Positions 6,001-22,572 of a DNA stretch of 22,572 bases are shown here, one piece after another (position 1 is the stretch's first letter; the number at the start of each line of letters is the position of its first letter). Position numbers: made by a program. The stretch is from Nitrospinota bacterium (GTDB lineage Bacteria; Nitrospinota; Nitrospinia; Nitrospinales; VA-1), in assembly GCA_038108555.1 (NCBI GenBank), contig JAYNIA010000035.1:1-22572 (forward strand). The letters run 5' to 3'.

Positions 6001-9000
6001 GATTCTACCTGTATTTCTGGTTTCTTGGGAATTATCGGGATTTTTCAAGTTATAAAAATTTAAAGCTCAACCCCGAACTTCTTGCGCTGGGCTTGTTCAT
6101 ATTCACTGTTCTTCCTTATTATTTCTACGGAATTGTCCAAAATTACATAGAGGCAAACGGGTTTAGCCGGGAAATAAATGTTTGCTTTAATTTAGCCATT
6201 GCAGGAATAGAATCTACTTTTCTATATTTTCAATTTAAAATGTTCTCCAGGTTTTTGAAAAATAACATGGATAAACCTTTTCCTCTTTTGCCAGTTATAT
6301 TTTCATTTTTTATTTTCAGTGGATTAAAAAAAGTATTACCATTGTCTATACCTTTTTATATTCTCTGGAAAATGGGTTTGACTTTTTTTCAGGGCGGGGT
6401 TTTGGCTTTTGTCCAGCGGGATTTAAATCTTTACTGGAGGCTTGAAAATGAAAAGAAGCAAAGTACATATTGTTACTAACCTAATACGGAAAAGGTTTCA
6501 GATTTCATGATACTTTTTTTCGGGGTAGTGTTTCTCACAATAGCAGTCCCGGAGTCTTCATGGAGTAATGAAACCATCCACTGCACCCCGGCACCCGCTT
6601 ATCAGGCTCCTCCCTATGTAGAACCCAAAAAAGAGCCTGAAATCTCCAAATTACACTTGATTGATAATGGAGATGAAACTATTACCGATTTAGATTCCGG
6701 GCTCTTGTGGACAAAAAAAGACAGCTATGCAGATTTAGGGAAATGCCTTAACTGGCAGGAGTCTTTGGACTATGTGGAGAAACTGAAAACAGGTGGCTTT
6801 GATGACTGGCGAGTGCCGACCATTAAAGAGCTTTCCACATTATATGATCCTACAAAGGAAAACAATATGGCCTGGGATCATAACCCTGATTACCCCCTGG
6901 CTCTAGACGAAAATTTTGCCGACGGATCGGCATACTGGTTCTGGAGTAGCGAGAATAAAGATATTGAAAAAAAGAGGGGTTGTGCAAAAACCTTATATTT
7001 TGTCAAAGGGCTGGTCCATTTTCGCAATTTAAAACAGTGTAACAATGGCGGTGTCCGAGGCGTAAGAAATATGGATTTACCCATTGAAATCAAATAAGGT
7101 TTGATTTCTATGAACAGGTTAAAAATAAGCGCTTCCTTGGTAGCTATAATAGGAACTCTTCTATTTCTCAATAACCATTTCCTTCAAACTGAAACCTGGG
7201 AAAACTATAACAAAAAGGGTATGGCGGCCTTTGGGAAAGGCAATTTTAAAGAAGCGGAAAGTAATTTTTTAAAAGCTTTGGAACTATGCAAATCATCACC
7301 TTTAAATTCCGGAGAACCTAGACTGTATTTCTCTCTAAACCAGTTGGCAGAGTTATACCGGATCCACTCCAAATTCAAAAAAGCCGAATCGATTCTTTTA
7401 CGTTTGCTGGAGATGGATAAAAACCAATTAGGTCCTACACATCCCAATATTGCCTTTGGCCTCAATAATCTTGCTGGGATTTACCGGTCACAGGGAAGGT
7501 TAAAAGAAGCTGAAGTTTTACTAAAACAAGCTATAGAAATAATCGAAACTTCATTTAATAAAGACCACCCTCTTGTAGAAAATCTCAATGAACATTATGC
7601 ACATTTACTGCATCAAATGGGTCGTCATTCTGAAGCGGAAAATTTAACATACCGGTTTCCATAAAATTTTTGGCATTAAAAATTGGGAAACCAGCAGGGC
7701 AAAAAACTACCTTGTTTGGGCATTTTTCATTTTTTAAAAATTTCCTTCAAAAATCTTTATAAAGCAGGAATATTTTAAAGTTTTCGCACCTCCAATATAT
7801 AGGGGTAGTTAAAGGATTTGGTCGAGGAAGTCAAATTAATCAATGTCTTTCAAGGGAATAAAAGGGGGTTGCTATGCAAGACAAAACTGCTTCAGAAATC
7901 ATGACAAGTCCGGTTATTTCTGCCAAAAAAGAAACCTGGGTGCGGGATATTGCCAATCTGTTTGTGAATGAACAATATAGTGGAATGCCCGTTACTGGTA
8001 GCGATGGTTCTGTTATTGGGATTGTGACTGAAATTGATATTCTACAGGCAGTTAATGAGGGACATGAACTGGTGAAAGCGACAGCTGGCGAAATAATGAC
8101 CAAAGATGTTGCTACGGTTTCCTCGGATACTCCAATGACCGAAATGATCAAAATTATGAAAGATTTTCATATTATTCGTCTTCCAGTTGTTGAGAAGGGA
8201 AAGCTTGTGGGAATTGTGTCCCGGAGAGATATTATCCGAAACATGATCGAACCGGAATTTATGAGCAACCCTTAAGTTAACAACCAAATCTGAAAGGAAA
8301 TTAAAAAAGGAGGATTGCAATGAATTTCAAAGAATGGGTTCCCTGGAATCGCAAGAAAGATGCAAATTTAGCCAAGGCTGATACAGATCATCCTATTTTT
8401 TCTCTACAAAGAGAAATGAATAATATGTTTGATAATTTTTCCAGATCTTTTTTTGACCCCTTCAACACCAAGGAGTTTGGGTTTAATCAGAGTGCTTTCA
8501 CTAAATTAGACGTGGTCGAAACGGAAAAAGAAATTAAGGTGACCGCAGAGCTCCCTGGAATGGAAGAGAATGACATTGAAGTGACCTTTTCAGGAGATGC
8601 GCTGGTTATTGAGGGAGAAAAGAAAGAAGAGCAGGAAGACAAAAAAGAAGGGTACTACCTCATGGAAAGGTCCTACGGGAGTTTCCACAGGGCTGTTCCA
8701 ATACCTAAAGGTGTGGACCGTGAAAAGGTAGAAGCGGAATTTAAAAATGGCGTATTAAAAGTTTCTTTACCAAAAACTGAAGAAGCTCAAAAAGAAATAA
8801 AAAAAATAAAGGTGAACAGTAATTAATAATTAATTTACCCTTTCCATTAGAACAGTAGTAATTTTGCAGTTAAAAGGAAAGTACAATGTCTTTGTTACGA
8901 ATCAGATTACATGGACGTGGCGGACAAGGAATCAAAACTGCAAGCCAGATTCTGGGTTCTGCCGCATTTCTCTCTGGGTATCAAGCGCAAGATTTTCCAC

Positions 9001-21000: not shown

Positions 21001-22572
21001 GCTGTTCATGCCATGGAAAATGCTTTGGGTATAAAAATGGATCCGCAACTGCGAGAATTGAGACGACTGCTTTATTGTGGGGAGTGGATTGAAAGCCATA
21101 CCCTTCATATTTATATGTTACACGCTCCTGATTTTCTGGGCTATCAGGACGCCATCCAAATGGCAAAGGATCACCGGGAAGTAGTTGAACGCGGACTTAA
21201 GTTAAAGAAAGCGGGTAACGATATTGTTTCTTTCATTGGAGGCCGGGAAATTCATCCTATTAATGTTCGAGTGGGTGGTTTCTACAAGCTTTTTTCAAAA
21301 CAGGAATTCGAACCGCTCAAGGAAACTTTAAAATGGGCTCGTGACGCTGCTTTGGAAACGGTTCGATGGGCAGCGCAACTCCCATTCCCCGATTTTGAAC
21401 AGGATTACGAATTTGTATCCCTAAGTCATCCTGATGAGTACCCTTTTAATGAGGGTAGAATTGTCTCGAATAGGGGCTTGGACATTGACAATTCAGAATA
21501 TGAAGAGCATTTCCAAGAAATCCATGTGGAGCATTCAAACGCGTTGCATTCGGTAATTAAAGATCGAGGGCCATATTTTGTAGGTCCTATGGCTCGCTAT
21601 AATTTAAACTTCGATAAATTATCCAAGTTGGCCCAGGAAGCCGCATTGGAGACTGGGCTGGGGAAAGAATGTTTAAACCCATTTAAAAGTATTATTACCC
21701 GGAGCGTCGAAGTTCTTTATGCATGTGACGAAGCGATAAGAGTTATTGAATCTTATGAAAAGCCGGAACAACCTTTTATAAATGCGGAACCAAAAGCCTC
21801 CAAGGGTTTTTCCTGTACAGAAGCGCCACGTGGAAGTTTGTACCATCATTACGAGCTGGATGAAGAAGGAAAAATTTTAGAGGCAAAGATCGTCCCGCCA
21901 ACCTCACAGAATCAAAAAACGATTGAAAACGATTTGCGAATGTTCGTCCCCGAGCATATCGAACTATCTCAGGAAAAATTAACGTGGCAATGCGAACAGG
22001 CGATTCGCAATTATGATCCATGTATATCTTGCGCCACACACTTTTTAAAATTGGATATTGAACGAACCTGACAAAAATATTTTGGTGATTGGCGTCGGCA
22101 ATTTATACCGATGTGATGATGCGGTGGGGATTCATATCGCACGTAATTTGAGCACAAGGAAAACTGGAAACTTCCAGGTGATTGAGCAAAGTGGAGAAGG
22201 CACCTCTCTCATGGAATCATGGAAGAATAACGATTGCGTATTTATAATTGATGCAGTGTCCTCGGGCGCATCCCCTGGTACCATTCATCGCCTGGATGCA
22301 ACAAACCCAATTCCTTCAAAATTTTTTTCTTGCTCTACACATAATTTTGGGGTGGCGGAAGCCATCGAATTAGGACGGACTTTAAATCAGCTTCCAAAAC
22401 ACCTCCATTTATATGGTATCGAAGGAAAAGTTTTCGAGCCGGGGGAAATATTATCTCCAGAATTATCTTCAGCGGTCACTGAAGTCACGGACGAATTATT
22501 TAACTACATGAATTCAACTTCTTGAGGAGAGCCTGTGCACGAACAATCATTGATGACCGACCTGATGAGGAA

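Follow-up and report, generated by a model that had tools for sequence, protein, structure and literature searches.

In a window of 22,572 nucleotides (the whole stretch of DNA analysed), a Nitrospinota bacterium of a nitrite-oxidising lineage, as its periplasmic-type NxrA bears out (E=0 to PDB 7B04), carries a Nitrospinales accessory island that, in a reading to which we give even chances, would serve low-oxygen maintenance through amino-acid oxidation, substrate-level ATP formation and electron transfer from NfnAB to a group 3b hydrogenase. The block is real and bigger than the genome-wide survey's note had it, also comprising nfnAB, a threonine dehydrogenase, Kbl and fhs, and no description of it was found in the literature searched. 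Its informative core is the set of 2-oxoacid:ferredoxin oxidoreductase (OFOR), acyl-CoA synthetase and dehydrogenase. The Thermococcales-like catabolic reading proposed in that note stays the best single explanation and gains from fhs, tdh-kbl, nfnAB and a clustering that recurs under differing gene orders. The ArcE pair, however, is not the centre of the block, and the label 'archaeal-type' is unsupported.

Extent and gene order

The genes porCD-porA-porB-acs-dehydrogenase-arcE-arcC-hydB-cNMP-hydG-hydD-hydA-protease follow one another on the + strand from 8886 to 22525 with intergenic gaps of -47 to +49 bases (ORF-finder coordinates), and hypF, C, D and E lie downstream of the protease, out to contig position 27521, in agreement with the co-directional block and, given NfnAB, with the Nfn/Sud-like genes noted before (Table 1). 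Contigs C35 and C76 are joined by 55 identical overlapping bases; beyond the overlap come the remainder of nfnB at the C76 end (divided by tblastn into C35:256-2 and C76:8875-7700) and then genes for a P-type ATPase, a tdh-like protein and Kbl. The small FAD/2Fe-2S subunit of NfnAB/Sud adjoins the large GltD-like subunit, and electron bifurcation by the pair is predicted. Among relatives, PrsW and TPR genes are met again in the interval from fhs or nfnA to porCD or arcE, and in a congener (G098) the CBS gene likewise lies upstream of porCD. The stretch holds two N gaps.

Table 1. Features of the island within the window
Feature	Position	Strand	Basis
nfnB (NfnAB/Sud large subunit), 5' end	2..283	-	tblastn split C35/C76, family matches
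nfnA (NfnAB/Sud small subunit)	317..1162	-	NF004862, 408 bits (cut-off 220)
fhs, formate-tetrahydrofolate ligase	3398..5026	+	NF010030, 798 bits (cut-off 652)
PrsW-family protease, Lcl-domain protein, TPR protein (accessory, travel with the island)	5040..7664	+	Pfam
CBS-pair protein and Hsp20	7874..8826	+	Pfam
OFOR gamma-delta fusion (porCD)	8886..9791	+	TIGR02175 and TIGR02179 above cut-off
OFOR alpha subunit (porA), four-subunit POR/VOR type	9788..11023	+	top model NF040682 (under cut-off); top PDB match 9BT4
OFOR beta subunit (porB), TPP-binding and Fe-S motifs	11023..11955	+	family and motif matches
NDP-forming acyl-CoA synthetase, alpha-beta fusion, without GNAT domain	11924..14050	+	Pfam; PDB 8WZU, 9Y43, 4XYL
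Amino-acid dehydrogenase (g02122), GluDH-like fold, LeuDH-like pocket	14070..15176	+	pocket motifs, predicted structure
ArcE, arginine synthetase family	15214..16542	+	P-loop GCGKS at 133; family conservation; fold
Carbamate kinase ArcC	16561..17526	+	NF009007, 311.5 bits (cut-off 266); TIGR00746, 321 (under cut-off, 358)
Group 3b hydrogenase beta, cNMP-binding protein, gamma and delta subunits	17547..20801	+	family matches
Group 3b hydrogenase large subunit hydA, in-frame TAA 20824-20826 (codon 17) in assembly	20776..22071	+	RICGIC, DPCISCATH motifs
Hydrogenase maturation protease	22058..22525	+	TIGR00072

Enzymes of the island

Glutamate dehydrogenases bind the side-chain carboxylate of glutamate through a Lys and a Ser. 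In g02122, which had been taken for such an enzyme, Leu43 and Ala replace these residues (GPSLGG against GP.KGG in GluDH and GPALGG in LeuDH; NAGGVICA against NAGGVTVS in GluDH), and Lys occupies the pocket position in none of the 76 readable sequences among 80 homologues, so that, as judged from its pocket residues, the dehydrogenase is a non-glutamate enzyme. The hydrophobic residue at the Lys position and the LeuDH-like N-terminal domain are those of LeuDH, ValDH and PheDH, and five of the six top PDB matches to residues 1-91 are named LeuDH. The closest folds to the model (pLDDT 94) are GluDHs; since the whole fold is nearer to GluDH, the enzyme is predicted to be LeuDH-like in its working and is at most a putative member of the LeuDH family. 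A literature search on residues that set GluDH/LeuDH specificity gave no result.

The genome contains three OFOR alpha genes (three PF01855 matches), of which the island porA is one. The synthetase has CoA-binding, flavodoxin-like and ATP-grasp domains, no GNAT domain, and two His residues, 279 (HSASLAG) and 555 (HKTE), which we take to be its phospho-His sites. It scores under the cut-offs of every named equivalog, and the alignments gave no readable answer on the substrates of either OFOR or synthetase.

ArcE retains 135 of 138 family-conserved columns, and its Foldseek ranks 1-8 are cDPGS and LpxK (4EHY) at 12-16% identity, with a profile match to cDPGS at E 1.4e-9; the fold of TK2200 has been likened to the same two proteins (PMC11032458). 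Its homologues carry the database name 'predicted GTPase', as PMC11032458 notes for this family, and Arg + ADP + Pi <-> Cit + NH3 + ATP is its predicted reaction. With arcC adjoining arcE, no full-length ArcA was found in this 92% complete genome, where the sole PF02274 match is a DDAH-like protein of 251 aa. The pair itself is ordinary and by itself not news: 37 of 80 metagenome loci contain it, Nitronauta and Nitrospira have already been named as arcE carriers (PMC11032458), and the earlier count of ArcE in 24 of 58 genomes becomes 23 of 57 when good genomes are counted at E<=1e-20. As unrelated metagenome ArcEs are 57-68% identical, the 65% identity to Thermococcus that had suggested an archaeal type is unremarkable, and in a quick, midpoint-rooted tree without named archaeal sequences 32 of 34 ArcEs from Nitrospinota fall into a single clade, grouped there at genus level. 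A recent archaeal transfer was rejected on this single Nitrospinales clade and on GC content (42.4%, against 42.7% for the genome). The pair is also detachable, since three relatives (G012, G015, G060) retain the remaining island without it, and in genera g20 and g22 it lies in unrelated neighbourhoods.

The OTC domains that the survey's note had placed in an uncalled frame belong to a single biosynthetic argF, which follows argD on contig C2 and has its 3' end cut by an N gap; an OTC fusion protein was rejected as an artefact of that gap. No OTC lies within the island, no catabolic OTC was found, and 105 of 108 OTC-positive genomes have one each. T. kodakarensis likewise has one OTC, so that the direction of the reaction is not readable from sequence, and arginine would yield a second ATP only if the biosynthetic ArgF worked in reverse. 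The genome has argG and carB, the case in which ArcE is expected to be catabolic (PMC11032458). It also has the ornithine cyclodeaminase reported before (TIGR00300); with only 2 of 39 ArcE carriers having one, this enzyme is no part of the system, and as an ornithine outlet it was rejected (10 of 120 genomes have one, 2 of them ArcE carriers).

The hydrogenase belongs to group 3b [NiFe] by its four subunits and L1 and L2 cysteine motifs. Among the Hyp genes reported earlier, hypF, C, D and E were found, hypB was searched for in this genome and not found, and hypD has an in-frame TAG at contig position 26031. ArcE as a stand-in for HypB was rejected, as 8 good genomes have hydA without either hypB or arcE and 5 have both. 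On our reading, made without a family scan, a short hypA-like frame also follows the protease, outside the window.

That the hydrogenase arm is decaying in this strain, leaving it unable to vent H2 where its relatives can, is a tentative idea compatible with the other readings. In 24,466 aligned codons the hydA and hypD stops are, on our reading, the only two that fall inside true coding regions (four further places fall in extensions or uncalled frames), and private changes in the hydrogenase arm number 271 here vs 166 in the congener, against 191 vs 176 in other genes (p=0.005), with hydB, cNMP and hypF changing faster (17 tests, uncorrected). Against decay, the hypD site reads CAG in three of four runs, each as one contig of depth <5 (the fourth run has no coverage), and the two N gaps suggest thin coverage. 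The closest HydA in the protein collection is only 86% identical, leaving no near-identical sequence with which to compare the stop.

Distribution and expression

OFOR, ADP-forming acyl-CoA synthetase and dehydrogenase occur together at all 21 Nitrospinota loci (21/21), and the island genes cluster in differing orders and orientations among relatives, being dispersed in G019 and G042. The whole order, formerly credited to one other genome only, lies on a single contig in G007, G063, G065 and G070, is split inside arcE in G098 and is also found in a record titled Nitrospina sp. MSP (L082). Six markers (arcE, porA, hydA, tdh, fhs, nfnA) are all present in 14 of 51 good Nitrospinales genomes, all missing in 11 and partly present in 26, counts in which kin genomes are not independent. 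Moreover, nfnA is always accompanied by hydA (22/22 genomes), within 30 kb in 12 of the 14 all-marker genomes. In good genomes, 10 of 28 hydA carriers have no arcE and 5 of 23 arcE carriers no hydA; arcC stands immediately 5' of hydB in 13 of 36 relatives. In Nitrospirales, which has a separate ArcE lineage, loci L103 and L118 group the same OFOR and dehydrogenase with tdh-kbl and arcE-arcC-OTC. They are atypical of the order, since none of 20 Nitrospirales arcE loci (of 56 in 381 genomes) has por, dehydrogenase or hydrogenase; arcC is present in 9 of these and OTC in 1. The genome studied here has the glycine cleavage P protein and three family-5 solute-binding proteins; as for amino-acid permeases or importers, an APC permease (ArcD family) is missing in 70/70 family genomes and a branched-chain ABC permease was not found in this genome.

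No conserved FNR, Rex, CRP or sigma-54 box was found; the one FNR-like site at 3324-3337 (6 matches vs 2.3 expected) is not conserved, a de novo palindrome search returned A/T runs only, and the promoter and terminator scan stayed at chance level. In a public transcript table, ten genes of the homologous island of Ca. Nitromaricola pontica are transcribed like 16 flanking genes (p=0.41), without a depth trend and with 19 of 80 values zero, and OTC transcription is weak. Nitrospira marina responds to low O2 with a 17- to 34-fold rise of a four-subunit POR, which may be an orthologue of the island OFOR, and a 6-fold rise of the 3b large subunit; its proteome table contains no carbamate kinase (PMC8115632 supplement).

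Explanations and significance

From the genes, families, pocket residues, clustering and co-occurrence observed, we infer substrates, direction, oxygen control and flux. A hydrophobic amino acid (Leu/Ile/Val-type) would be deaminated by the dehydrogenase with formation of NAD(P)H, its 2-oxoacid decarboxylated by the four-subunit OFOR to yield reduced ferredoxin, and the acid freed by the ADP-forming synthetase with gain of ATP. On a second route, threonine would be converted by Tdh and Kbl into acetyl-CoA and glycine, and glycine cleavage with Fhs would give formate and ATP; on a third, arginine would yield ATP at ArcE, and again at ArcC if the single ArgF were reversed. NfnAB could combine NADH and reduced ferredoxin (1:1 from the first route) into NADPH, from which the 3b hydrogenase would vent H2 or pass electrons to polysulfide. 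Proteins of the cell itself or peptides taken up from outside are the probable substrates, and an anaerobic ATP gain with release of acid and H2 or H2S is predicted.

This catabolic reading is favoured by the constant core, the marker co-occurrence and the clustering in different orders, by the grouping in L103 and L118, by argG and carB, the T. kodakarensis finding on carbamate kinase in vivo (PMC13260591), the glycine cleavage P protein and the solute-binding proteins, and by the low-O2 rise of POR and 3b subunit in Nitrospira marina. It is weakened by the reversibility of every enzyme, the single argD-linked OTC, the missing permease and regulator box, the flat Ca. Nitromaricola pontica transcription, the hydA stop and faster change of the hydrogenase arm, the scattering in G019 and G042, and the N. 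marina table without carbamate kinase.

The same enzymes could also work reductively, which seems unlikely: H2 would give NADPH through the 3b hydrogenase, NfnAB would bifurcate to ferredoxin and NADH, short acids would be activated, carboxylated and aminated, formate would enter via Fhs and glycine synthesis, and ArcE/ArcC would fix ammonia, so that neighbours' fermentation products are scavenged at oxic-anoxic interfaces. Each step is reversible, the importers sought were not found, and the nearest solved relatives of the synthetase, 8WZU and 9Y43, are presumably CoA ligases of a CO2-fixing cycle; against this, Tdh-Kbl is normally a catabolic pair, and argG and carB are present. The low-O2 POR was taken as a CO2-fixing enzyme (PMC8115632) and H2 oxidation is among the hydrogenase roles listed in PMC3578206, whereas the Ks of ArcE for ammonium sulfate is about 110 mM (PMC11032458) and in T. 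kodakarensis carbamate kinase failed in vivo as a source of carbamoyl phosphate (PMC13260591).

It is improbable, too, that the island has no part in anaerobic energy supply and only gathers, by shared ancestry, separate accessory modules (aerobic recycling of amino-acid N and C, H2 oxidation, arginine turnover). Background transcription, the lack of an oxygen-regulator box, the 26 incomplete marker sets and the location of ArcE-ArcC elsewhere in g20 and g22 would fit, but clustering recurs in other orders and orientations, even in Nitrospirales with its separate ArcE lineage, and an O2-sensitive-type OFOR with an ADP-forming synthetase would be odd for aerobic recycling. Supply of carbamoyl phosphate by ArcE to HypF for hydrogenase maturation, demonstrated in T. 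kodakarensis, which has no CPS (PMC13260591), and favoured by arcC before hydB, is very improbable here given carB, an ArcC that would use up the carbamoyl phosphate, the genomes in which arcE and hydA occur apart and an island without OTC.

Compared with known systems, the preferred catabolic reading resembles the ArcE-ArcB-ArcC pathway of T. kodakarensis (PMC11032458, PMC13260591) in P-loop, cDPGS/LpxK-like fold, carbamate kinase neighbour and the failure to find a full-length arginine deiminase; what differs is that neither an OTC nor an ornithine antiporter is dedicated to it, that the genome has argG and carB, and that the pair is embedded, in a nitrite oxidiser that is mesophilic, among OFOR and hydrogenase genes of one island. 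With Thermococcales peptide fermentation (GDH or aminotransferase, 2-oxoacid:ferredoxin oxidoreductases, NDP-forming acyl-CoA synthetases) it shares the three-step logic and enzyme families, but a single cluster unites one OFOR and one synthetase with a dehydrogenase that is not of the glutamate type, and ferredoxin disposal is predicted via NfnAB and a cytosolic 3b enzyme. In the nitrifier Ca. Nitrosocaldus islandicus (PMC5817080), OFOR, ADP-forming synthetase and 3b hydrogenase were likewise read as amino-acid fermentation, a prediction in both cases, there for aromatic amino acids with IorAB and without a ferredoxin:NADP reductase; here NfnAB would fill that gap, the genes are clustered, and arginine and threonine routes are added. 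The nitrite oxidiser Nitrospira marina also has a third OFOR, of the four-subunit type, some ten locus numbers away from a 3b hydrogenase, with low-O2 induction of both, but its gamma subunit (190 aa) is unfused to delta, carbamate kinase was not detected and the POR was interpreted as serving CO2 fixation (PMC8115632).

The role of the Nitrospina 3b hydrogenase was called unclear in 2013 (PMC3578206), has stayed open since and lacks physiological evidence according to PMC10839748; the island would give it a specific partner pathway and named substrates. Some marine and estuarine nitrite oxidisers, presumed to live on nitrite and CO2 only, carry a conserved set of genes seemingly meant for ATP from amino acids and, as predicted from these genes, for shedding the electrons by way of a hydrogenase in low oxygen. 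If this reading is true, major marine nitrite oxidisers would fall into two kinds of lineage, one having a metabolism for surviving anoxia and the other lacking it, and the island would offer a new dehydrogenase subfamily and place ArcE physiology in a mesophilic bacterium for the first time. In a bolder version, possible though we lean against it, the Nitrospinales ancestor had, and estuarine or low-oxygen lineages retain, a complete amino-acid fermentation with four substrate-level ATP steps (acyl-CoA synthetase, Fhs, ArcE, ArcC) in which NfnAB and the 3b enzyme together make up a confurcating hydrogenase of two parts. On that version, supposedly obligate nitrite oxidisers would outlast anoxia by protein fermentation, with a hybrid and uncharacterised family of amino-acid dehydrogenases at the entry step, and would give off branched acids and formate besides H2 and ammonium.

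Gene content of the island and a possible pathway

The genes that the genome-wide survey's note had assigned to a fermentation-like block centred on the ArcE–carbamate kinase pair were found at the same positions by open-reading-frame and family scans, with intergenic gaps of −47 to +49 bases that would be compatible with a single transcript. The limits of that block have to be extended, since the window begins within nfnB, the remainder of which forms the end of contig C76 (the ends of C35 and C76 have 55 identical bases in common), and since fhs also belongs to the unit. With a left arm of nfn and tdh-kbl genes (the best family model for the tdh-like gene is below cut-off, that for kbl over it) and a right arm led by fhs, the island therefore covers about 37 kb, with three amino-acid routes and redox sinks. 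The source genome (G000), whose completeness is 92%, has a gene for a periplasmic-type NxrA.

Features of the island and further genes (positions on contig C35 of G000 unless another contig or compared locus, L, is named)
Feature	Position	Strand	Remarks
Left arm: nfnA, nfnB, P-type ATPase, threonine-dehydrogenase-like gene, kbl	runs into C76		
Membrane protein, CxxC thioredoxin-like domain	1404–2687		between nfnA and fhs; no Pfam match; none seen at that place in relatives examined
Right arm	3398		begins with fhs
porCD, porA, porB, NDP-forming acyl-CoA synthetase, ELFV-family dehydrogenase, ArcE-family protein, carbamate kinase, four group 3b hydrogenase subunits, cNMP-binding protein, maturation protease	8886–22525	+	hypF, C, D, E next, past window end
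hydA true start	20776		
hydA in-frame TAA	20824–20826		codon 17; Glu of RVEGEG in relatives
hypA-like frame	~22520–22780		looks short, without cysteine pairs
hypD in-frame TAG	26031		
Collagen-like Gly-X-Y repeat protein	L001:9903–10892		3′ of hypE, contig end
Cytidylate-kinase-like gene (PF13189)	L044:4286–4978		between dehydrogenase and arcE in 7 relatives; absent from G000
DDAH-like amidinotransferase	C30:4478–5233 (L251:1309–2064)		
NPN-dependent ornithine cyclodeaminase	C43:17470–18711 (L169:1489–2730)		
Additional ELFV-family dehydrogenases (four)	C9:464–1717; C51; C15; C38		
Lcl-domain matches, about eight consecutive	C16:29240–36540		many more elsewhere in genome

We give roughly even chances to the reading that the island performs low-oxygen amino-acid oxidation with substrate-level ATP formation, electrons passing through NfnAB to the group 3b hydrogenase. 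Each amino acid would yield one NAD(P)H at the dehydrogenase and one ferredoxin electron pair at OFOR, which would be the ratio used by NfnAB, and the NADPH made by NfnAB would then supply the hydrogenase, with ATP formed at the synthetase, Fhs, ArcE, and ArcC. The glycine cleavage P protein is also present in G000. Because the conversion of leucine into isovalerate plus H2 is nearly thermoneutral, H2 would have to be kept low, or the electrons passed to some other acceptor, for example polysulfide or nitrate. No amino-acid transporter was found within the island, and genes for Hsp20 and a PrsW protease accompany it; endogenous protein or imported peptides are thus the likely substrates, and G000 contains three family-5 binding proteins. 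A reductive direction for the same set of enzymes seems improbable.

The dehydrogenase, previously noted for its resemblance to glutamate dehydrogenase (GluDH), does have a GluDH-like fold according to its predicted structure and a fold search. The glutamate pocket is not retained: Leu replaces the lysine of the GluDH motif GP.KGG, as in LeuDH (GPALGG), and Ala replaces the serine of NAGGVTVS, the two residues that we take to set glutamate specificity. Among the best 80 of 274 relatives, lysine occurs in none of the 76 readable motifs, and porA, porB, and the synthetase lie directly upstream at all 21 Nitrospinota loci; at the 59 loci of other phyla, island-type OFOR is nearby in 20, arcE in 3, and a hydrogenase large subunit in none. 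The dehydrogenase–OFOR association is thus widespread, and Nitrospinales are marked by the added synthetase, ArcE–ArcC, and hydrogenase.

The ArcE–ArcC pair and the predicted arginine route

ArcE matches no model in Pfam or NCBIfam. Its predicted structure (pLDDT 93) resembles cDPGS and LpxK, the same likeness described for Thermococcus kodakarensis TK2200 (PMC11032458). Of 138 columns conserved in 79 metagenome homologues, the G000 protein retains 135, and the three deviating columns are common to most relatives. The 65% identity to the T. kodakarensis ArcE given in the survey's note is unremarkable, because metagenome homologues are already 57–68% identical, with arcC nearby in 37 of 80. The gene is present in 39 of 120 genomes of the phylum and, in 36 of the 38 other carriers (all except two small fragments), arcC follows in 33, does not follow in two, and is cut off by a contig edge in one. 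A quick phylogeny of 115 sequences places 32 of the 34 ArcEs from Nitrospinota in a single clade (SH-aLRT 100) with subgroups at genus level, and those of G069 (L065) and G006 (L066) fall outside the Nitrospinales clade. This pattern fits an old acquisition followed by repeated loss, and the tree is silent on an archaeal donor. The G006 arcE lies near small genes that look, by reading, like microcompartment vertex proteins.

G000 carries argG and carB, which, by the argument in PMC11032458, indicates a catabolic ArcE. A role of ArcE in carbamoyl phosphate supply is very unlikely. The sole OTC of G000 is the argF behind argD on contig C2, interrupted by an N gap, and a single OTC match was likewise found in 105 of 108 OTC-positive genomes. 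A second ATP from arginine would therefore require this biosynthetic ArgF to run backwards. No APC permease was found in any of the 70 family genomes. The ornithine cyclodeaminase gene mentioned in the survey's note is real; of the 120 genomes, 10 have it, just two of these being ArcE carriers, so that it is not counted as part of the system. The two halves of cyanobacterial ArgZ resemble the DDAH-like amidinotransferase and the cyclodeaminase of G000, which here are separate genes.

Conservation of the island and state of the hydrogenase arm

The complete order, formerly thought to occur in just one other genome, is present on single contigs in G007, G063, G065, and G070, in the named record Nitrospina sp. 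MSP (L082), and, broken within arcE, in the congener G098. Among the 36 carriers, por, synthetase, and dehydrogenase genes precede arcE in nine (one ending at a contig edge) and hydB directly follows arcC in 13. Of the 51 Nitrospinales genomes with a completeness of 90% or more, 23 have arcE, 25 porA, 28 hydA, 39 tdh, 36 fhs, and 22 nfnA; all six markers are found in 14, none in 11, and some in 26, these kin not being independent. Mean genome size is 3.6 Mb with five or six markers versus 2.6 Mb with none or one. The distance between hydA and nfnA is at most 30 kb in 12 of the 14 six-marker genomes, and the modules are scattered in G019 and G042. In G012 and G015, arcE is missing from an nfn-fhs-por-acs-dehydrogenase-hydrogenase arrangement, G090 has tdh-kbl inserted at that place, and G020 shows a further order. 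That the modules are unlinked accessory functions is an improbable explanation. Two Nitrospirales records (L103, L118) group por, dehydrogenase, tdh-kbl, and arcE-arcC-OTC, an arrangement not found at 20 other Nitrospirales arcE loci. Nitrospirales arcE loci (L103, L118, L280–L297) lie near Hsp20 (12/20), an AMP-type acyl-CoA synthetase (13/20), and a 540-aa protein of no known family (6/20); in L118, a LonB-like gene also precedes por.

In this assembly, both hydA and hypD of G000 contain in-frame stops. Contigs of runs X2, X3, and X4 have C at the hypD site, which contradicts the stop there, with X1 lacking coverage (one study, low depth). Counted against outgroups, amino-acid changes private to one genome number 271 in the hydrogenase arm of G000 versus 166 in that of G098, compared with 191 versus 176 in other genes (p = 0.005). 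These defects may reflect thin coverage or real decay. No hypB was found in G000 or in 21 of the 28 Nitrospinales genomes at least 90% complete that carry this hydA, where nickel insertion may work by another way.

Expression and significance

A look-up of RNA runs covering the window listed none. According to Table S10 of PMC13768755, Ca. Nitromaricola pontica has, on one contig and in the same order, kbl, tdh, fhs, three OFOR genes, a synthetase, a dehydrogenase, hypothetical genes of 693 and 1326 nt, and carbamate kinase; the 1326-nt gene is taken as arcE from gene order and length, not sequence. By those values, ten island genes have transcript levels like those of 16 flanking genes (p = 0.41); four more genes of the cluster, accessory or hypothetical ones, were excluded from the comparison. 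The levels show no trend with depth, zeros make up 19 of the 80 values, and OTC has a low transcript rank. Oxygen control of the island is not supported by these data, although the test is weak because the sampled waters still sustained nitrite oxidation. According to PMC8115632, a four-subunit POR, which may or may not share the subfamily of the island OFOR, and the 3b hydrogenase are up at 5.6 µM O2 in Nitrospira marina.

No description of the combination was found in the literature searched, which excludes most subscription papers and bioRxiv supplements. No such cluster was found described in the consulted text and supplement of PMC11032458, whose tree and cluster figures may show one, and "carbamate" had no match in the supplements of PMC10839748 and PMC8026999 (one file in part). 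Both the components of the island and the type of pathway they belong to are known, whereas we did not find this arrangement and host described. The island turns the old question of the purpose of the Nitrospina 3b hydrogenase into specific assays.
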